Below the pieces are notes generated by a model. That model saw nothing but the letters and a program-made list of their open reading frames with translations, did no database searches and was not told the origin of the DNA. A DNA stretch of 64,000 bases from an uncultured bacterium (lineage in GTDB: Bacteria; Patescibacteriota; Minisyncoccia; Minisyncoccales; UBA5738), in the NCBI GenBank assembly GCA_903847095.1, contig CAINCQ010000016.1:333-64332 (forward strand), in the 5' to 3' direction. Positions 16,739-52,492 of the stretch are shown here, in pieces (position 1 is the first letter of the stretch; each line of letters opens with the position of its first letter). The position numbers and the translations under genes were made by a program.

Positions 16739-16945
16739 TTAAATATTCAGTACCTCCTTAATGACTAAAGGAATTACCATTATAAACCCGTCTTCCAATC
16801 GTTTGCATTGATTTACGATCCCGCAGTCGCAGGTGAAGAAACCTTCGCCGGGAAAGTGAACACCGCATTTTTTGCAATCGATGATTTGCTTGGGTTTATT
16901 CAAACGTAATTCCTGTTTGCCAAGTTGTCTCTTTTTTTCAACCAA
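16739..16945 (-). CDS. small Cys-rich protein (68 aa, zinc-ribbon-like)
   Basis: TTG start preceded by GGAGAGatcaaa. Cys pattern CKKC-x11-CDC-x5-C, hydrophobic C-terminus. Confidence 0.45.
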   Translation of the reverse strand: MVEKKRQLGKQELRLNKPKQIIDCKKCGVHFPGEGFFTCDCGIVNQCKRLEDGFIMVIPLVIKEVLNI

Positions 16946-27734: not shown

Positions 27735-27870
27735 TTGTAAATTTATTTATTTTCTTAATGTGTTTCGACGCCGCAGGGCATTAACCCTGCGGATCGACCA
27801 AAGGAGTACCTCCTTTGGAATCCTCAAAATTCGCAACCCCGAGGCAAGACCTCAGGAAGTTGCGAATTTT
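27735..27870. repeat. dispersed structured repeat, copy A
   Basis: An AT-rich head TTGTAAATTTATTTATTTTCTTAATGT is followed by three perfect hairpins (27771-27792, 27798-27818, 27826-27870). Homologous to 60149-60310 (same orientation) and 29111-29255 (inverted). Confidence 0.7.
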
Positions 27871-29538: not shown

Positions 29539-30609
29539 TCAATCTTTGGTCAATGGATCTTTGTTCATTTTCACCTCCAAACCGTCCTTTCTTCCGTCGC
29601 CGTCGGTATCGGGATTCTTGGGATTGGTGTGATAAATCTGCGTCTCCTGATAGTCGTTCAAGCCATCGCCGTCGGTATCGGGATTTCCGGGATCGGTCCC
29701 AAGAATCAGCCATTCGTTTCCGTCGCCAAGTCTGTCGCCGTCGGTATCGGGATTCTTGGGATCGAGGTTCATGAACAATTCGTTGCCATCGGCAATCCCA
29801 TCCTTATCGGTATCGATCCTGCGCGCTTCCATAAGACCCAATTCCGCGACCTTCAAGCAAAGGTCCTTATAGTCGGGATTGACCACCACATCGCAGTCCT
29901 TGGCTTCCTTGGCTGTGATCATCGCGTCTTCGTCAATGCAGTACTGCCGGAATTCCACAGGCACCTTGGAACAGTCACCTCCATATTTTGACCCGAAGGA
30001 ATTAAGCAGGCACAGGTGGGCGTATTCTTCCGTTCCAAGCTTGGCGCATTCTTTGATGTCGTCCTTTTTACCGCTGGAAGCGATCGCGAAAGACGTTGCG
30101 ACATCCTGGCATTCTTTCAACTCGAAAGATTCGCTGAATACGGTGGCGCAGATACTGGGATCCCTTGAGGCTATCGCCACATCACTCACACATGTTTCTT
30201 TTTTCTTGATATCGGGTATTTTCAAACAAAGATCGACGTCTTTTAAATTATCGGCGACCCGATTCATGCAATCGTTCCTCGTCTCTTCAACTACGATCCC
30301 CCCGCAGGCCAAAAAATTATCCCTATCGATGGCGTCACTAAGGATTATCCCGTCAAGACAAGCCTGGATCTTATCCTTGCCTTCAAGTACCAAACAATCT
30401 TCTTTCGTCATTGGCATCACATCGTAAACATCTTCAACGACGGCCGGACTCTCGCCCTTCCCCACAACCGCTTCATTTTTTTTCGGGGACGGCTTATAAA
30501 AGAAAACTACGTAAAGGATCACAAAACAAAGAACCATGCAAGCGATGCCGCCGTAATAAAAAAGCTGCCTTCTTTTATCGAGCTCTTCGATGAAATTATC
30601 TTCTTCCAT
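29539..30609 (-). CDS. membrane-anchored Cys-rich protein with C-terminal thrombospondin type-3-like calcium-binding repeats
   Basis: 356-aa ORF. N-terminal TM (YYGGIACMVLCFVILYVVFFY), repeated Cys modules, then DTDKDGIADGNE / NPDTDGDRLGDGNE / NPDTDGDGLNDYQE / NPDTDGDGRKDGLE. Confidence 0.7.
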   Translation of the reverse strand: MEEDNFIEELDKRRQLFYYGGIACMVLCFVILYVVFFYKPSPKKNEAVVGKGESPAVVEDVYDVMPMTKEDCLVLEGKDKIQACLDGIILSDAIDRDNFLACGGIVVEETRNDCMNRVADNLKDVDLCLKIPDIKKKETCVSDVAIASRDPSICATVFSESFELKECQDVATSFAIASSGKKDDIKECAKLGTEEYAHLCLLNSFGSKYGGDCSKVPVEFRQYCIDEDAMITAKEAKDCDVVVNPDYKDLCLKVAELGLMEARRIDTDKDGIADGNELFMNLDPKNPDTDGDRLGDGNEWLILGTDPGNPDTDGDGLNDYQETQIYHTNPKNPDTDGDGRKDGLEVKMNKDPLTKD

Positions 30610-37139: not shown

Positions 37140-37288
37140 ATATAAAATAACCGGCTGAAATGCTCACTAGAGATATCCTGCCGTACTCTAGTTTGGCGCC
37201 GGACGGCCTTATCCTATCTACTCTGCTAGGCTAAGACGAGCATAGAGGTAAGAACTAGACACATAAACCCGTTTACACCTCCGGCATC

Positions 37289-37554: not shown

Positions 37555-39177
37555 ATGATAAAAAGGTTATCAGAAAAAAACGGTAAGTCAATGGAACGTC
37601 AAATTACAATCGCGGAAAAACTGATCCAAGACGACCCGAAAACAAAAACGGAATTAGACGCGTTCAAACGGAAAATTTGCGTGGAATTAAAAATTCCCTA
37701 TCCGGGTAATATCTCCCTGCTTTCGGCCTTAAACAAACTTGGCGGCGGAAAATCCGCCGAACAATCCCGCCGCGAACTTTATAACCTGTTGCGCGTCCGG
37801 CCGGTCCGGTCGCTTTCGGGCATCGTCAATGTTTCGGTTCTGACCAAGCCCTATCCCTGTCCCGGAATCTGCCTTTACTGCCCGCAGGAAACCGGTTTTC
37901 CGAAAAGCTATCTGTCGGGCGAACCGGCAGCGGAACGGGCCAGCCGCCTGAAATTCGATCCCGGAAAACAAGTCTCCGGCCGCCTTCGCACCCTGGCCGA
38001 AGAAGCCCACCCAATAGACAAGATCGAAATGCGGGTCATCGGAGGAACTTGGAGTTTCTATAAAAAAGCTTACCAAGAATCGTTTATCAAGAAATGTTTT
38101 TTTAGCTGTAATAATTTTAACGCCCCGCGTTCCAGAAAAATCGGCTCCCTGAAACAAGAGCAAAAAATCAATGAATCGGCTAAATGCCGGATCATCGGAC
38201 TGTCGGTCGAAACCCGGCCGGATTTTATCAGCGGAAAAGAAATCATCCATTTAAGGAATCTTGGCGTAACCAAAGTGGAATTGGGAATCCAAAGCATTTA
38301 CGATGACGTGCTCGATTTAAATCAAAGAGGCCATAAAGTCGATTCTACGATAAAAGCAACGCGGCTTTTAAAAAACTCCGGCTTCAAAATAGCCTACCAG
38401 ATAATGCTTAATCTCTATGGCTCTTCGCCTCAAAAAGATATTGAAATGATGAAAACAATCTTTAACGACGAACGTTTCCAGCCCGATACGCTCAAAATTT
38501 ATCCCTGCGCCGTCTTGCGCGAAGCCCCGCTTTATGAATTATACGAAAAAGGCTTGTTTAAACCTTATCCGGATAAAAAACTGATCGAGGTTATCAAAGA
38601 AATAAAAAAGAACATCCCGCCCTATCTAAGGATCGAGCGGATCATCCGCGACATCCCCTCCCCCCGGATCGCCGAAGGCACCAAAACCGTTTCCAATCTC
38701 CGCCAGATCATCGCGGCGGATATGGTAAAAGAAAATTGGCGCTGCCAATGCATCCGTTGCCGCGAAATAAAAGGAGACTATGACCCAAAGGAAAAAGTAT
38801 ATATGGCGCGCCGCGAATACAAAGCTTCGGGCGGACAGGAGATTTTTTTAAGCTTTGAGAACAAAGAACAAACCAAAATCTTCAGCCTGTTGCGTCTGCG
38901 CATCAGCCAAAACCCGGATCCCGCAATTCCGGCACTGAAAAATTCCGCGTTAATAAGAGAGATTCATACTTATGGTTTCCAGCTTGCCGTGGCGGAAAAA
39001 ACGTCGGCCGTCCAACACCAAGGCTTAGGAAAAAAATTGATCCTGGAAGCGGAAAAAATCGCGAAAAAAGAATTCGGATACGAAAAAATCGCGGCCATCT
39101 CCGGAATCGGAGCGCGCGAATACTGGCGCAAATCCGGCTACAAATTAAAAGCTACCTACATGATAAAGAACCTTTGA
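37555..39177 (+). CDS. elp3: Elp3-type radical SAM/GNAT tRNA uridine(34) modification enzyme homolog
   Basis: 540-aa ORF. Radical-SAM cluster region PYPCPGICLYCP, central TIM-like domain, C-terminal GNAT motif QHQGLGKKLILEAEKIA. The start is uncertain (alternative ATG at 37591). Confidence 0.8.
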   Translation: MIKRLSEKNGKSMERQITIAEKLIQDDPKTKTELDAFKRKICVELKIPYPGNISLLSALNKLGGGKSAEQSRRELYNLLRVRPVRSLSGIVNVSVLTKPYPCPGICLYCPQETGFPKSYLSGEPAAERASRLKFDPGKQVSGRLRTLAEEAHPIDKIEMRVIGGTWSFYKKAYQESFIKKCFFSCNNFNAPRSRKIGSLKQEQKINESAKCRIIGLSVETRPDFISGKEIIHLRNLGVTKVELGIQSIYDDVLDLNQRGHKVDSTIKATRLLKNSGFKIAYQIMLNLYGSSPQKDIEMMKTIFNDERFQPDTLKIYPCAVLREAPLYELYEKGLFKPYPDKKLIEVIKEIKKNIPPYLRIERIIRDIPSPRIAEGTKTVSNLRQIIAADMVKENWRCQCIRCREIKGDYDPKEKVYMARREYKASGGQEIFLSFENKEQTKIFSLLRLRISQNPDPAIPALKNSALIREIHTYGFQLAVAEKTSAVQHQGLGKKLILEAEKIAKKEFGYEKIAAISGIGAREYWRKSGYKLKATYMIKNL

Positions 39178-39206
39178 TTGAACAAAAAAAACGAGGCTTC
39201 TCCTCG

Positions 39207-39509
39207 TTATTCTTTATTGACCTTAAAGACGGTAATACTTCCGCTAGCTTCTTCTAAAGCCTTTTTGACCGCTATGGCCCTTATTGTCGTGAGCGTCCCG
39301 GGCGCCAAACCGATTTCCTTCTCGATTAACGCCAGATCTTTGCTGGTAACCAACGGGATCAACCCGGCCAATTGTTCTTTTACTTCTTCTTGTGAAAGGT
39401 CAAAGCCTTCGGCTCCGGCCGCAAGCTCCTTAACAAGGATCTTTAAAACCTCGTACTCGCGGGGTTCCAAAGCAACTTCCTTTACCTCAATTACCTCTAT
39501 CCGATCCAT
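39207..39509 (-). CDS. hypothetical protein (100 aa)
   Basis: Acidic ORF, no recognised motif. Confidence 0.5.
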   Translation of the reverse strand: MDRIEVIEVKEVALEPREYEVLKILVKELAAGAEGFDLSQEEVKEQLAGLIPLVTSKDLALIEKEIGLAPGTLTTIRAIAVKKALEEASGSITVFKVNKE

Positions 39510-48553: not shown

Positions 48554-49093
48554 TTAACGGATTTGAAGCACTCTGTTTGATTGGTAAAAACTTTCCACGC
48601 TTCCTTTTTTCCACCAGCCCTTCAATTCAGGTTGTCCGATAAGATCCGGCCGGTGGAATGGCACGTTCCCCGGAGATAAAACCCGGCCCAAACAATGCCC
48701 ATCGGCTTTTGAACGGATCTGAATCAGTTCCCTACCCTTAAACCACCGACCCATACGCAACAAACAGCGCCGGATCGCTATGTCCTGGATATGGGTTCGG
48801 GCTGTTTCCTGGTGCTTGTAATCGAACCCCGACTCGACATTGGTTGGATTGTCGTCATAGACATTGCAAGCGTCATAAATGAGCTGGCCAACGATATGAG
48901 AATTCTTTATCAGGAAATAATAATATCCATCCTCATAAAGAGCGCAAGCGCCCAAAAAATCCACCAAAGTCCTGTTGACCGTCCAAACCAGACGCCAGTT
49001 CCCTTCTCCGTATATCTCGTTCCATTCTTTAAATCTAAAGTCCCGCTCCGCTCCCAAATACCCCGGCGTCCCGATAGTTATCCAATTTTCCAT
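48554..49093 (-). CDS. hypothetical protein (179 aa)
   Basis: ORF preceded by GGAGGaaatATG. Trp/Tyr-rich, no motif recognised. Confidence 0.6.
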   Translation of the reverse strand: MENWITIGTPGYLGAERDFRFKEWNEIYGEGNWRLVWTVNRTLVDFLGACALYEDGYYYFLIKNSHIVGQLIYDACNVYDDNPTNVESGFDYKHQETARTHIQDIAIRRCLLRMGRWFKGRELIQIRSKADGHCLGRVLSPGNVPFHRPDLIGQPELKGWWKKGSVESFYQSNRVLQIR

Positions 49094-49181
49094 ATTTCCT
49101 CCAATGGCTTGTTAACGATCTTTAATTTTTGAAAACGGCTATATTGTACCTTAATCCGTTTAAGCGTCAAGGATGCCTAAT

Positions 49182-49207
49182 AAAAAAGCTGGCTTTTAAA
49201 AACCAGC
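49182..49207 (-). terminator. intrinsic terminator after the 21-aa ORF
   Basis: Minus strand reads GCTGG-tttttaaaag-CCAGC followed by TTTTTTATT. Confidence 0.65.
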
Positions 49208-49253
49208 GTCTAATTTGTGTCAGTGAAGGACGGCACCATAAAGCTTCAAGCGT

Positions 49254-49319
49254 TCAAGCGCCAGCCAACCCGACTACGGCCATCGCGATAATGACCAGTA
49301 CGGCAATGAGTTTCCTCAT
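49254..49319 (-). CDS. 21-aa hydrophobic micro-protein (MRKLIAVLVIIAMAVVGLAGA), tentative
   Basis: ATG at 49319 lies 11 nt downstream of GGGAGGT (49336-49330). TGA at 49256-49254, terminator 47 nt further on. Below the ORF-track size cut-off. Confidence 0.4.
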   Translation of the reverse strand: MRKLIAVLVIIAMAVVGLAGA

Positions 49320-49888
49320 AGTTAGGGGGACCTCCCTATACCCTTCCCGCCTTTTTATGCCGGGGCAGAAAAGCAGGAACAAAACTGCGCTAGGCTCTTT
49401 TCACCAAGTTGTACCGCACGCGACACCGGCGTACTTTTCGTAGGCCTATCCGCCGGATCCGCCACAAGAACTGGCTAGTTTTTTCATTAGCAGTATATCC
49501 TCCAAGGTTTCGTTTTTGAAACCAGAACGTTAACTGGAATAGCTGGGTATTTACAATCGATCGTTTGTCCTTTCGGACAGCCAGGTTCACCATTACTCTA
49601 TGTACCCTAAGCATCCGGTACTAGCTCGTCCTCGGTATGGCGTGGCTGCTGGAAAAAATATGCCTCATTGTTTCCGTTTCACCTCCCGAAAAACCATGTC
49701 TTACTTCTCTGCTTACGCAAAACCGGAGCCTTGCGGAGTCCCAGCCTTACCGCTCCTTAATGGAACACGTCTGTCGAGCCCTGTTCGGGACCCTAGGTAA
49801 ACCAGGATGTAGTTTCAGACGATAATGATTGTTGCTACCATAACTGGCGATCGATCGATCCTCACCTCCTTTTTAAGTTGCTGAAGCT

Positions 49889-49916
49889 ATTTTACCCGAA
49901 ACGCGCTATTTGTCAA
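49889..49916 (-). promoter_or_regulatory. near-consensus sigma70 promoter inside the non-coding region
   Basis: Minus strand reads TTGACA (49916-49911), 16-nt spacer, TAAAAT (49894-49889). Confidence 0.6.
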
Positions 49917-50065
49917 AAGTCCGGGCTAAAATAAAAGGGCGGTTATCCGTCCTTTAATTAAATATCAGCATACGCTGGGGTTTCGGTCGTTTCGAAATCG
50001 GTTAAATCGGTTAAATCGGTTGGCGTTGGGCGCGAATAATTTTTAACCCGTCCGCATTGTCTGCT

Positions 50066-50350
50066 TCATGGTCCGGGGTTAAAGGGCAGATACATAACAG
50101 AAGCGCCGTTGTCGGTAGAAACATTGGTTCGAGAAACTCCCAAGGAGCCAGCTTCGGATACCGGTGGTCCGGGACCAAGTGCCAGACACATTGCCGCGAT
50201 CAGGAACAATACAAGCAATGGCTCAGCAAAGATACCTTGAAGTCCTGCACCGGATTCGCTGGGCAAATCGCCCGAGTCAGTGGAAGTCGTTATTTTGGCC
50301 AGCAGGATCGCTCCCAAAAACAGCACTGCTATCGTAAGCACGTTGAGCAT
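50066..50350 (-). CDS. 94-aa protein with two hydrophobic segments
   Basis: ATG at 50350 lies 7 nt after the exact SD GGAGGTGA (50364-50357). MLNVLTIAVLFLGAILLA.. and ..IFAEPLLVLFLIAAMCLALG. Confidence 0.6.
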   Translation of the reverse strand: MLNVLTIAVLFLGAILLAKITTSTDSGDLPSESGAGLQGIFAEPLLVLFLIAAMCLALGPGPPVSEAGSLGVSRTNVSTDNGASVMYLPFNPGP

Positions 50351-50428
50351 ATTTTTTCACCTCCTTTTCGCTCTTCGACGTTATTCCACCTTCGGAACAA
50401 ACCGTCGGCAATCCGTGACCACCTAAGG

Positions 50429-50626
50429 TCAAATGATCACCGCCAAATCGGGCGGGCCGGTTCCGGCATGTAACAACCTCGGCCGCAAGACCGACTTTAC
50501 CGTTATTTTCCGCCCCCTGGCGGGAAAAATCAGACAGTCGCCCAAACCGCTCGGTATAACGCATTGCTTCTTAGCTATTCCCGTCATAACGGCGCGGCGC
50601 AGAAAGGCGCATGCTCCCTTAATCAA
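50429..50626 (-). CDS. 65-aa basic protein, tentative
   Basis: TTG at 50626 lies 1 nt after GGAGGTGA (50635-50628). The sequence is not informative. Confidence 0.3.
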   Translation of the reverse strand: MIKGACAFLRRAVMTGIAKKQCVIPSGLGDCLIFPARGRKITVKSVLRPRLLHAGTGPPDLAVII

Positions 50627-50692
50627 ATCACCTCCTTACGGGATACGACTGGAGTGTTCACAATCCTGGTTTAAAAAATTCAGGACATCCCT

Positions 50693-50746
50693 TTAGAAAG
50701 CCATCCACAATCCGCCGAGCTTCCGCTTAACGGATTTTGCACTCAT
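50693..50746 (-). CDS. 17-aa micro-ORF MSAKSVKRKLGGLWMAF, tentative
   Basis: ATG at 50746 lies 6 nt after GAGGT (50757-50753). It shares K(F/L)GGLWM..AF-stop with the micro-ORF at 50833..50922, with synonymous codon differences. Confidence 0.35.
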   Translation of the reverse strand: MSAKSVKRKLGGLWMAF

Positions 50747-50832
50747 TCAGATACCTCGAAGCGTTGTTCAGCAGGACATTCCAGGCTGGGTAGCGCAGCA
50801 ACATAGGTTGACGCTTAGCCGGCCGCGGGAAG

Positions 50833-50922
50833 CTAAAAAGCATTCCCAATTAAAAATGTCCGCATCCTGCGCTCCATCCAAAGGCCTCCGAACTTCCACA
50901 CAAGAAGCTGGCTTTTTCTGAT
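50833..50922 (-). CDS. 29-codon micro-ORF (..SQLLVWKFGGLWMERRMRTFLIGNAF), start codon unclear
   Basis: The frame opens 4 nt after the 8-mer GGAGGTGA (50934-50927), i.e. 7 nt after its GGAGG core, at a non-canonical ATC (50922). The first canonical in-frame start is GTG at 50901. Paralogous to 50693..50746. Confidence 0.25.
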   Translation of the reverse strand: MRKSQLLVWKFGGLWMERRMRTFLIGNAF

Positions 50923-50998
50923 GCTTTCACCTCCTACCGCTTTATCGATTATGATTGTTAAGGAACTGTTAAAATGAATTTATCGGATTTAGGGTTTT

Positions 50999-51027
50999 TT
51001 GTCAAAGGGTTGCCTGTTTGCTAATAT
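50999..51027 (+). promoter_or_regulatory. sigma70-like promoter of purB
   Basis: TTGTCA (50999-51004), 17-nt spacer, TAATAT (51022-51027). Confidence 0.65.
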
Positions 51028-51079
51028 TATAAGTTGATGTTAGTATTTCCCATTGTTCCTTAACAAAAGGAGGAAAAAA

Positions 51080-52492
51080 ATGACCGAAAAAGAGAAGGTA
51101 AGGTTTTTTGACGGCGTATCGCCTTTGGATCACAGATGGCATCCGGAAATCACACCCGTACTCCCATATATATCGGAAAGGGCCCGGGTTAAATTTCAGG
51201 CCTGGGTAGAACTCGCTTTGTTCAAATATTACGTACACATCGGAAAAATAACTAGGCCGGGAGCAATCCAAGAGGCGGAAACTGCCTACAAAAATCTGGA
51301 CATTGATCGAGTCTACTATATAGAAGACAACGTCACCGACCATGATATGCGGGCATTGGTAGAAGCCTTCAGGGAGCTGATCAGCGAAGAACTCCGGCCT
51401 TGGATACATTTTGGCGCTACGTCCTACAATATCATCAATAGTGCCGACGCCATCCGCCGCAAACTCCTGATCCTGGAAGTGATCATTCCGGCAATGAAGG
51501 ATCTGCAGAGAGAAATGATAAGAATAGCTTTGCAGGAAAAAGATACGCCCCAAGCCGGACGAACCCACGGCCAGCACGCCGTTCCCATCACCGCCGGGTT
51601 CGCTATGGCCCAAATCATTGACCGCCTGGGCGAATCGATCCTGCGCCTGGAAAATCTAGCAAAAGATTTGCCGGGAAGCTTTGCCGGAATGTGCGGAGCT
51701 TACAATGCCACCGCCCTGCTCTTGCCCGATCCGCTCGACTTTGAAAGGAAAGTCCTTGCCGAAGTCGGCATCATCGCGGCCCGGATCTCGACCCAGATCG
51801 TTCCGCCCGAACCAACCCAACGCCTTTTCGAGGAAATCAAGCATGCCTCGACAGCCCTCGCCACCCTGGCCGATAATATGCGAAATCTGCAACGGCCGGA
51901 GATTGCCGAGTACGGAGAGTTTTTCGGTAAAACACAGGTTGGATCTTCCACCTCGCCTCATAAACAAAATCCCAAGAATTGGGAAAACATCAAAGGCGTA
52001 TGGAAGATCATTGTCGGAAGAATGCTGACCCTCGACCTGAACGCGATCAGCGAGCATGAACGAGACCTCACCAACTCCCAAGGAATGCGCCAGGACGACG
52101 AGATCATCGCCCTCTTCTATATGCAAATAAAGCGGGCAACCAAGATCCTGAAGAAAATGCATATCGACCGGGAACGCATGGAACAAAATCTGTTCCTTAC
52201 CGGCGACCAGATGCTTTCGGAAGCCGCCCAACTGGTCTTAAGCTACCTCGGCTATCCCAATGCCCATGAGAAAGTGAGGGTTTTGGCTAAAAAGATCCGC
52301 GATTCCGGAAAAATCAAGGAACGTCATGCTCTGCTTTCACTGATGCAATCCGATCCGGAGCTTGCTCCGTATATGGCACGGATGACCGAAAACCAATTCT
52401 CCGCGCTATCCGACCCACGCGATTACATCGGCATCGCGCCCCAAAAAACCGAATCTGTTTGTGCCTACTGGAAGGAAAAACTTAATCTTTAA
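51080..52492 (+). CDS. purB: adenylosuccinate lyase
   Basis: ORF 51053..52492. ATG at 51080 follows AAAGGAGGaaaaaa. Fumarate-lyase signature GSSTSPHKQNP. Confidence 0.9.
   Translation: MTEKEKVRFFDGVSPLDHRWHPEITPVLPYISERARVKFQAWVELALFKYYVHIGKITRPGAIQEAETAYKNLDIDRVYYIEDNVTDHDMRALVEAFRELISEELRPWIHFGATSYNIINSADAIRRKLLILEVIIPAMKDLQREMIRIALQEKDTPQAGRTHGQHAVPITAGFAMAQIIDRLGESILRLENLAKDLPGSFAGMCGAYNATALLLPDPLDFERKVLAEVGIIAARISTQIVPPEPTQRLFEEIKHASTALATLADNMRNLQRPEIAEYGEFFGKTQVGSSTSPHKQNPKNWENIKGVWKIIVGRMLTLDLNAISEHERDLTNSQGMRQDDEIIALFYMQIKRATKILKKMHIDRERMEQNLFLTGDQMLSEAAQLVLSYLGYPNAHEKVRVLAKKIRDSGKIKERHALLSLMQSDPELAPYMARMTENQFSALSDPRDYIGIAPQKTESVCAYWKEKLNL

Follow-up and report, generated by a model that had tools for sequence, protein, structure and literature searches.

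Five identical extended Shine-Dalgarno motifs in a small-ORF locus of a Patescibacterium, with two candidate AUC/AUU start sites

Why does one 8-mer, GGAGGTGA, occur five times within 1,256 nt of DNA that is almost free of long open reading frames (ORFs)? The DNA in question belongs to a stretch of 64,000 nucleotides (contig CAINCQ010000016.1, an uncultured Patescibacterium), here called the window. The original prediction placed the copies at 49679-49686, 49862-49869, 50357-50364, 50628-50635 and 50927-50934, all in one orientation, and noted that most of them lack a canonical start codon at canonical spacing. It proposed that initiation here tolerates non-canonical starts or long spacers, that some copies are relics, or that the motif docks ribosomes within a non-coding RNA (ncRNA), and it mentioned a possible mimic of the 16S rRNA tail on the plus strand. 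We believe, with moderate confidence, that the five 8-mers are extended Shine-Dalgarno sequences (SDs, numbered SD1 to SD5 in the direction of reading) maintained by selection on two minus-strand transcripts with strong predicted promoters, T1 and T2, of a lineage-specific locus of small ORFs (sORFs) in Nealsonbacteria-like Patescibacteria. Two of them, SD1 and SD2, probably drive initiation at AUC or AUU codons, as the comparison of related loci suggests.

Is the cluster real? An exact search of both strands returned every copy with its orientation (minus) and found GGAGGTGA seven times in the window, on the minus strand every time. Because the remaining two copies (29571-29578 and 29975-29982) lie inside a 356-codon gene, where they read ..YGGD.. 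and ..LEVKM.., all non-coding copies of the window fall in this region. Dinucleotide-preserving shuffles gave 1.17 copies per window on both strands taken together, and 0/100 of them reached seven. The minus-strand rate of the window itself predicts 0.137 copies for a stretch of 1,256 nt; the probability of five or more is 3.6e-7, or about 2e-5 once corrected for 51 windows. The clustering had been claimed to exceed chance, and the observation is confirmed as real and non-random. The recommended count of the 8-mer and of its distance to starts was run on the window, where none of the about 60 ordinary ORFs (at least 110 codons) has the 8-mer ahead of its start and the longest SD matches are of the type AAAGGAGG(T).

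A repeat or mobile element was tried and rejected: the copies share no flanks beyond (A)GGAGGTGA and the region contains no repeat family, therefore they are not copies of one repeat. An alternative genetic code or recoding was rejected as well, considering that all three stops occur in all frames of the region, so that no single-stop pattern is seen. The 8-mer's TGA might have ended a coupled ORF lying upstream, but this was rejected too; the upstream frames, read by eye, are without start codons.

Can the copies be relics of decayed gene starts in degenerating intergenic DNA, or a compositional or chance cluster? They do lie in a 1.96-kb stretch (49094-51052), most of which is without long ORFs, and GGAGG is common on this strand of the window (85 occurrences vs 10 on the other, a bias that arises because most genes are on the minus strand). 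The answer comes from related genomes. Orthologous loci were obtained via the neighbouring 179-residue protein (48554-49093, minus strand, function unassigned) and via ORF3, a 94-codon ORF of T1. The lineages and the identity of their 179-residue proteins are L004 (75%), L010/L011 (74%), L012/L013 (70%) and L014/L015 (67%); in addition, L006 is a 981-nt contig that begins inside SD1, and L007 is apparently the same genome as L004 (no alignment check). The orthologous region holds five copies in L004, L010 and L011 and four in L012/L013 and L014/L015, at the same relative positions; in ~55 kb of flanks of these relatives the 8-mer occurs on neither strand. All copies are invariant although the flanking proteins are 67-76% identical. 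The locus is 75-82% identical to the window at the nucleotide level, with one block at 90-95%, and for the protein genes flanking it the same pairs of lineages give 68-81%. Locus identity, also put at 75-92%, is equal to or above that of the neighbours; this implies purifying selection at least as strong as on them, and selection on the region excludes the relic reading. Considering also the chance estimates above, we hold decayed starts or an accidental cluster to be very improbable.

From which strand, then, is the region read? It resolves into two minus-strand units: T1 with sORF1, sORF1b, ORF2 and ORF3, and T2 (~690 nt) with tiny ORFs and a 21-codon ORF at its end. The predicted transcription signals are as follows.

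50977-51005, minus strand: T1 promoter, with -35 TTGACA (51005-51000), a 17-nt spacer and -10 TAAATT (50982-50977), 10/12 consensus matches; predicted start ~50970.
49928-49955, minus strand: T1 terminator, a GGACGG/CCGYCC stem with a T run behind it, read in the sequence; pairing in the stem is perfect in L004, L010, L012 and L014.
49889-49916, minus strand: T2 promoter, with -35 TTGACA (49916-49911), a 16-nt spacer and -10 TAAAAT (49894-49889), 11/12 matches; predicted start ~49882.
49179-49207, minus strand: T2 terminator, GCTGGTTTTTAAAAGCCAGC followed by a T run, found by a terminator scan and conserved in L004, L010 and L014.

The T1 promoter is kept in all lineages, with both hexamers in L004, L010 and L012, and in L014 directly ahead of unit 2. 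The T2 -10 reads TAAAAT, TAGAAT or TACAAT and always fits TAnAAT. Read on the plus strand, each copy is TCACCTCC, the canonical anti-SD, and an RNA with five such sites could mimic the 16S 3' tail and titrate SDs; weak promoter-like matches are also found on that strand. However, the best promoters, both terminators and all SD-ORF pairs are minus-strand and conserved, L004, L010 and L014 do not conserve the plus-strand -10 at 49552-49557, there are fewer stops in the sense than in the antisense frames, and the codon-position signal given below likewise belongs to the minus strand. We regard the plus-strand mimic as extremely improbable.

The locus is confined to a narrow clade, because distant homologues of the 179-residue protein (at most 65% identity; P0009, P0010, P0013, P0014, P0015, P0017) are found in other contexts without it and a metagenome DNA scan with a conserved 20-nt block added nothing new (only L007 and two chance matches, L008 and L009). 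Viral contig scans yielded one chance match (L019) and nothing more. Within the clade single units are lost: L012 is without unit 2, and L014 is without unit 1, the T1 promoter and leader being joined directly to SD2. The neighbours are shuffled (the lyase gene on the right is inverted in L004 and L014), with the locus itself intact. From this modular loss and these changing neighbours it follows that the units act like genes of their own rather than like parts of a single integrated RNA.

Do the copies look like SDs? All five have 8-11 nt of perfect complementarity to the canonical tail ..GAUCACCUCCUUU, counting the preceding A residues, and the pairing takes in the start-proximal UCA. GGAGG followed by UGA, that is, extended on the start-codon side, is present at all five sites and at 0 of the ~60 ordinary window genes. 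It was correctly predicted that most copies lack a canonical start at canonical spacing: an ATG, GTG or TTG ~5-10 nt past GGAGG is found at SD3 only. The spacer distances originally given were right save one, the ATG past the 50364 copy being at 6 nt, not 7 (the 8-mer ends at 50357 and the ATG is at 50350). Measured from the GGAGG core, the start is at 9 nt for SD3 (ATG; 7 nt in L010), 7 nt for SD1 and SD2 (ATC or ATT), 13-23 nt for SD4 (ATG) and 13 nt for SD5 (ATG). The downstream ORF is under purifying selection for SD1, SD2 and SD3; for sORF4 and sORF5, which follow SD4 and SD5, the evidence is weak. The features of T1 are listed here.

50927-50935, minus strand: SD1, AGGAGGTGA (copy 50927-50934), at ~36 nt from where T1 is predicted to begin; unchanged among the window, L004, L010 and L012.
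50833-50922, minus strand: sORF1, 29 codons from ATC, 4 nt past SD1, IRKSQLLVWKFGGLWMERRMRTFLIGNAF-stop; conserved over codons 1-21, variable in the tail.
50693-50746, minus strand: sORF1b, 17 codons from ATG with a weak SD (GAGGT), MSAKSVKRKLGGLWMAF-stop; invariant C-terminus LGGLWMAF-stop.
50628-50637, minus strand: SD2, AAGGAGGTGA (copy 50628-50635); identical in the window, L004, L010, L014 and L006, and deleted in L012 together with the rest of its unit.
50429-50623, minus strand: ORF2, 64 codons (64-67 across lineages) from ATT, 4 nt past SD2, IKGA.AFLRR...RPRLLYAGTGPP.
50357-50367, minus strand: SD3, AAAGGAGGTGA (copy 50357-50364), 6 nt ahead of ATG; invariant in 6/6 lineages, with the ATG 4-6 nt past the 8-mer.
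50066-50350, minus strand: ORF3, 94 codons (90-97 across lineages) from ATG, a predicted membrane protein with the motifs LALGPGPP and SSGVS.T.VSSDNGAS.

SD3 is the canonical start site for ORF3, which is called in public assemblies and annotated as a hypothetical protein in a Candidatus Nealsonbacteria metagenome-assembled genome; it has no Pfam or NCBIfam match. What do SD1 and SD2 serve? The sORF1 codon 4 nt past SD1 is ATC in 5/5 lineages. Between the upstream stop and this ATC there is no canonical start, save a GTG inside the SD of L012, and the first downstream canonical codon is at 7, 9 or 19 by lineage. ORF2 begins with ATT in the window and with ATC in the four other lineages, always 4 nt past the 8-mer; its first downstream canonical start differs by lineage, and the internal ATG is missing in L014.

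Coding was assessed by synonymous/non-synonymous substitution events, in frame against the other two sense frames combined. The counts are 6/7 vs 3/25 for codons 1-21 of sORF1 (p=0.018), 9/7 vs 4/28 for sORF1b, which is present in 5/5 lineages having unit 1 (p=0.002), 10/11 vs 5/39 for codons 1-20 of ORF2 (p=0.002) and 59/97 vs 54/256 for ORF3 (p<1e-4); for sORF7, the last ORF of T2, they are 8/4 vs 2/20 (p=0.0009). One Val codon of sORF1 varies among GTG, GTT and GTC, and one Leu codon of sORF1b among TTG, CTA and TTA. These patterns of synonymous change suggest that sORF1, sORF1b, ORF2, ORF3 and sORF7 are translated. In protein searches ORF3 and ORF2 found the clade itself only, the matches to P0124 and P0125 being partial and repetitive; for ORF2, only itself was found in 5.8e9 clusters and 1.84e9 representatives.

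At both SD1 and SD2 we thus find a conserved AUH at optimal spacing, no usable canonical start and an SD longer than the norm, and in every sequence-level respect the two appear to belong to the class of near-cognate starts with extended SDs. Of the originally proposed readings, initiation at non-canonical starts is the best supported one, namely, at the copies ending at 50934 and 50635.

Can the ORFs behind SD1 and SD2 start elsewhere, at TTG 50626, at a GTG inside the SD or at a downstream ATG, GTG or TTG, with the ATC or ATT being an ordinary Ile codon or untranslated? A TTG does stand 1 nt past SD2 in the window and is used by public gene calls for ORF2 (P0003), CTG occupies this position in L004 and L010, and downstream canonical codons exist in every lineage. 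However, the same codon is TCG in L014 and TTA in L006, so that no start is conserved there; the downstream candidates are at codon 7, 9, 12 or 19 by lineage, and the residues ahead of them are conserved with synonymous changes; the frame of the GTG inside the SD has stops and almost no synonymous changes (1 vs 13). We consider such other starts improbable.

Some further observations concern T1. The motif [FL]GGLWM is common to sORF1 and sORF1b; in sORF1b it is at the C-terminus, ~55 nt ahead of SD2, and from its sequence this C-terminus resembles an arrest or leader peptide. L004 has a (CCTAAG)x4 tandem array after sORF1b. The 3' untranslated region of ORF3 (49995-50021, minus strand) contains three tandem copies of the 9-nt unit AACCGATTT; two copies are found in other lineages and in the near-identical strain L002 (vs L003).

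What is the role of the two copies in T2? Its features are as follows.

49862-49872, minus strand: SD4, AAAGGAGGTGA (copy 49862-49869), ~13 nt from the predicted T2 5' end; invariant in 5/5 lineages.
49815-49841, minus strand: sORF4, 8-9 hydrophobic codons (MVATIIIV-stop; MAIAMVVGA-stop in relatives); ATG 10-20 nt past SD4, in a predicted hairpin.
49679-49687, minus strand: SD5, GGGAGGTGA (copy 49679-49686); the 8-mer is invariant in 5/5 lineages, with an ATG constantly 10 nt later.
49621-49668, minus strand: sORF5, 15-16 codons, M[RK]H[IF].SSS..; AUG in a hairpin and codons 6-10 in a helix closing a variable insert.
49446-49504, minus strand: sORF6 with GGAGG and an 11-nt spacer (ORF 49487-49446), 13 codons, MKKLAS..GG..G-stop; conserved in 5/5 lineages.
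49254-49336, minus strand: sORF7 with GGGAGGT and a 10-nt spacer (ORF 49319-49254), 21 codons from ATG, MRKLIAVLVIIAMAVVGLAGA-stop.

The pairwise differences in sORF7 by codon position are 17, 0 and 47, and in the predicted fold part of its SD pairs with a pyrimidine tract further upstream, UUCCUGC..UUUCUGCC. The ATG and TGA of sORF4 are conserved, and the spacer after SD4 varies in length (10-20 nt) and sequence. sORF6 has 5/9 synonymous/non-synonymous events in frame vs 6/22 in the other frames, counts that do not discriminate and offer weak support. The long-spacer part of the original proposal therefore stands halfway: the ATGs 10 nt past the 49686 copy and 10-20 nt past the 49869 copy are conserved, but the coding evidence for these tiny ORFs is weak. 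A type I toxin-antitoxin arrangement was also considered, since sORF7 encodes 21 hydrophobic residues and is well supported as coding; in a light test, made by eye on the alignment, no conserved antisense or overlapping antitoxin RNA gene was found in T2, the sole plus-strand promoter-like match (49530-49557) not being conserved in L004, L010 and L014. In the spacer after SD4 (49848-49859, minus strand) the window has a self-complementary GATCGATCGATC, which relatives are without; its pairing could shorten the effective SD4-AUG distance, 20 nt in this species.

The consensus fold of T2 has 93% of its cells paired. Of 170 pairs, 10 differ on both sides (shuffles: 6.2 +/- 1.8; 16/500 reach 10), and 15 cells are changed on both sides (1/500 shuffles reach 15); as the structure was derived from the same five sequences on which it was tested and the controls are lenient, this support for the fold is suggestive only. 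The compensatory pairs are in the hairpins holding the AUGs of sORF4 and sORF5 and in the helix over codons 6-10 of sORF5. Helix 2, in the sORF4 region, has 3 pairs changed on both sides, the single-sequence folds being not significant. Helices 21-22, at the SD of sORF7, are 100% paired, and the 30-nt insertion of L012 lands in the loop of that hairpin. A long-range helix pairing 150-164 with 511-525 was rejected: it is broken in three lineages, with no compensation. A conserved anti-SD partner for SD4 or SD5 was not found inside T2, where the best duplex partners differ by lineage.

Can the whole be a structured ncRNA, with the perfect SDs as docking sites for the 30S subunit (a sponge, a standby site or a stabiliser of the STAB-SD type) and the small ORFs incidental or regulatory? 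This is the third of the original readings, and it could hold for T2 alone even with a coding T1. SD4 and SD5 are without a start codon at canonical distance, the AUGs of sORF4 and sORF5 are within hairpins, the C-terminal frame of sORF5 is not conserved (a 1-nt indel shifts it between lineages), a CCUCC able to mask SDs is found in neither transcript, the STAB-SD offers a precedent (PMC4113751), and the double changes of the T2 fold and the two hairpins after sORF1 described below point in the same direction. For the locus as a whole, however, the synonymous excess is specific to the frames of sORF1, sORF1b, ORF2, ORF3 and sORF7, and the units were lost independently in L012 and L014. The 5' part of T1 has 0 compensatory pairs and a folding z of -1.0. 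Rfam 15 has nothing in the region at gathering score, window-wide only two tRNAs reaching it, and even at E<=10 the interval 48900-51200 gives a single chance match (twister-P3, 16 bits). The docking reading is thus kept in part: the T2 copies may be standby or stabiliser sites in a structured leader, but the locus is not one ncRNA. We presume the ncRNA explanation to be rather unlikely.

Within the favoured reading by extended SDs, we take T2, on the basis of its ORFs and fold, for a structured leader that carries tiny upstream ORFs and has sORF7 at its end; SD4 and SD5, as accessible sites for the 30S subunit, probably serve those upstream ORFs, hold a ribosome in standby or stabilise the 5' end. 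The mechanism may be outlined as follows. SD1 and SD2 would place the 30S subunit on an AUC or AUU 4 nt past the 8-mer (7 nt past GGAGG), thus opening sORF1 and ORF2; the unusually long SD would compensate for the weak start codon, and the output would therefore be low and sensitive to the fidelity of initiation, which involves initiation factor 3 (IF3). SD3 would be an ordinary strong site for ORF3. SD4 and SD5 would lie in single-stranded stretches ahead of tiny ORFs whose AUGs are 10-20 nt away and partly buried in hairpins; most likely they would load ribosomes onto these short upstream ORFs, or else keep a 30S subunit in standby or as protection of the 5' end. All this would take place in the structured leader, ~560 nt long, at whose end the well-supported 21-codon sORF7 stands.

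One block of T1 asks for a separate explanation.

50772-50849, minus strand: the most conserved block, 90-95% nucleotide identity, with two predicted hairpins (50847-50827 and 50824-50784).

In three lineages it folds with z-scores of -2.1 to -2.6, and register-shifted changes preserve hairpin 1. An invariant GCU UUU UAG C is found at the sORF1 stop, which sits in hairpin 1, and the +1 frame, SFPRPAKRQPMLLRYPAWNVL, runs without a stop for at least 21 codons in 5/5 lineages, being without its own start codon in L010 and L006. Programmed +1 frameshifting at a shifty stop is known from release factor 2 (RF2, prfB). As there, GCU UUU UAG C is a run of five U with a stop, followed by an open conserved +1 frame. 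Unlike RF2, it has no SD-like stimulator 3 nt upstream (no GGAGG is found upstream of the slippery codon, only UGGGA, or UAGGA in L006, 4-5 nt upstream); the synonymous signal of the +1 frame is not significant (5 synonymous vs 5 non-synonymous events, no difference from other frames), and an RNA hairpin explains the same conservation here. The block is possibly a structured regulatory element or an RF2-like +1 shift (stretch GGGAAUGCUUUUUAGCUUCCC).

It is tempting to go further and to propose that the locus is a translational sensing device, or that its five perfect SDs form a 30S-binding reservoir on abundant transcripts. In such a device the two AUC/AUU starts would report initiation fidelity (IF3), sORF1b would be an arrest-type leader peptide (LGGLWMAF-stop; GGLWM also in sORF1), and the hairpin-embedded shifty stop would permit a +1 shift into SFPRPAKRQPMLLRYPAWNVL. 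If true, the output of ORF2, ORF3 and the T2 peptides would be set by ribosome and release-factor status in a reduced-genome episymbiont. We give this proposal only a small chance.

To return to the reading of the copies as extended SDs, several points weigh against it. Transcription of T1 and T2 is a prediction, with starts placed by the hexamers. The complementarity of GGAGGUGA is to the consensus tail, the organism's own 16S 3' end lying outside the window. The comparison comprises five or six related lineages, with few substitution events that are phylogenetically non-independent. sORF1 and ORF2 have no homologues beyond the clade, and the AlphaFold2 model of ORF2 (predicted local distance difference test, pLDDT, 43) is uninformative. 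No ORF at the locus is as conserved as the block after sORF1. The coding evidence is weak for sORF4, sORF5 and sORF6; sORF5 in particular has 3 synonymous and 5 non-synonymous events, which do not discriminate, and overlaps the compensatory helices 11-13. Finally, one antisense frame partly mimics the synonymous ratios, with more stop columns and no expression signals, a mimicry that is expected because third positions are shared.

What does the locus mean for other genomes? To our knowledge, translation signals in Patescibacteria are essentially unstudied. Validated bacterial AUU, AUA and AUC starts are very few, and the locus adds two conserved candidates side by side, mostly AUC, with perfect extended SDs. 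Its candidate ORFs number up to eight, and support is good for five; gene callers find only ORF3 and, in this species, ORF2 from the non-conserved TTG. Since callers miss most of the set, the small-protein content of genomes of the Candidate Phyla Radiation is under-counted. Conserved "orphan" extended SD motifs, taken as exact matches, can guide a search for unannotated sORFs and non-AUG starts. Both the block that follows sORF1 and the T2 leader, with its structure, are candidate new cis-regulatory RNA elements.

As for the surroundings, the right neighbour is an adenylosuccinate-lyase-like gene (51053-52492, plus strand), and the wider window contains housekeeping genes, e.g., those for topoisomerase I, LeuRS and GlmS. 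The 179-residue protein on the left represents a widespread uncharacterised protein family: more than 200 homologues (50-75% identity) occur in Patescibacteria and in some DPANN archaea, and no Pfam or NCBIfam family matches it. Between T2 and its gene, restriction-modification-type genes (weak Eco57I Pfam match) are present in L004 (3767-5853), L010 (6690-7829) and L011 (3729-4886). Divergence between the window and L012 is mosaic: the NIF3-like gene is 95% and YceG 93.5% identical at the nucleotide level vs 72.5% for ORF3 and 78% for the 179-codon gene, which suggests local recombination or fast evolution of both.

Elsewhere in the window, AAGGAGGT occurs on the minus strand at 16752-16759, with no usable ORF behind it, and at 27808-27815, inside the palindrome CCAAAGGAGGTACTCCTTTGG; CGGAGGTG at 37276-37283 (minus strand) is followed after 11 nt by a 12-codon ATG ORF. 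The 356-codon gene with the two coding copies of GGAGGTGA (29539-30609, minus strand) repeats the motif NPDTDGDG, much like thrombospondin type 3 calcium-binding repeats. At 39164-39253 (minus strand) ARAGORN reports a 90-nt tRNA-Asp(GTC) that is absent from the Rfam tRNA calls at gathering score; the call could be false, or the tRNA could carry an insertion or intron.

How does the locus compare with known systems? The Staphylococcus aureus psm-alpha operon encodes four peptides of ~21 residues, each with its own SD. As in this operon and in other multi-sORF transcripts, several very short ORFs, each with its own SD, share one short transcript here; unlike psm-alpha, there is no sequence similarity, and the peptides differ in kind (basic Trp-rich, hydrophobic, Ser/Gly-rich). 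Upstream ORFs for leader peptides have been mapped in S. aureus (PMC13009471). sORF1b is similar to regulatory leader peptides in that the amino acids of its C-terminus are conserved and lie shortly ahead of the next gene.

The STAB-SD of Bacillus thuringiensis cry3A (Agaisse and Lereclus 1996) is a non-initiating SD near the 5' end that stabilises the mRNA by binding 30S (reviewed in PMC4113751). Comparably, SD4 is ~13 nt from the T2 5' end (SD1 is ~36 nt from that of T1), both starts being predicted by conserved hexamers, and its ATG is 10-20 nt off, inside a hairpin. Unlike the STAB-SD, SD4 is followed by a conserved tiny ORF of 8-9 codons, and the T2 5' end is a predicted one. RNase J was not found among the ten large window ORFs scanned with Pfam.

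The closest comparison for SD1 and SD2 is with natural near-cognate starts. In Escherichia coli AUC and AUU initiate at ~1-2% of the AUG level, with N-terminal Met, and infC and pcnB (both AUU) are the only confirmed natural cases (bioRxiv 10.1101/063800); IF3 discriminates against such start codons (PMC9723500). In S. aureus extended start-proximal SD pairing governs start selection, and all conserved non-canonical starts (AUU of the 61-residue CvfC1, AUA of ccpN and infC) have very strong extended SDs, with ~10% of AUG-level output (PMC13009471). The present candidate starts differ from these cases in being mostly AUC, a codon that is not among the validated natural cases cited, in standing as a pair on one transcript with three more identical 8-mers nearby, and in belonging to a reduced-genome Patescibacterium, where they are predicted from sequence. 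They resemble S. aureus cvfC1, ccpN and infC and E. coli infC and pcnB in the combination of a weak AUH start with an unusually long SD. ORF2 is a small protein of a size similar to that of CvfC1, and, as in S. aureus, the extension is on the start-codon side of GGAGG (GGAGG-UGA here).

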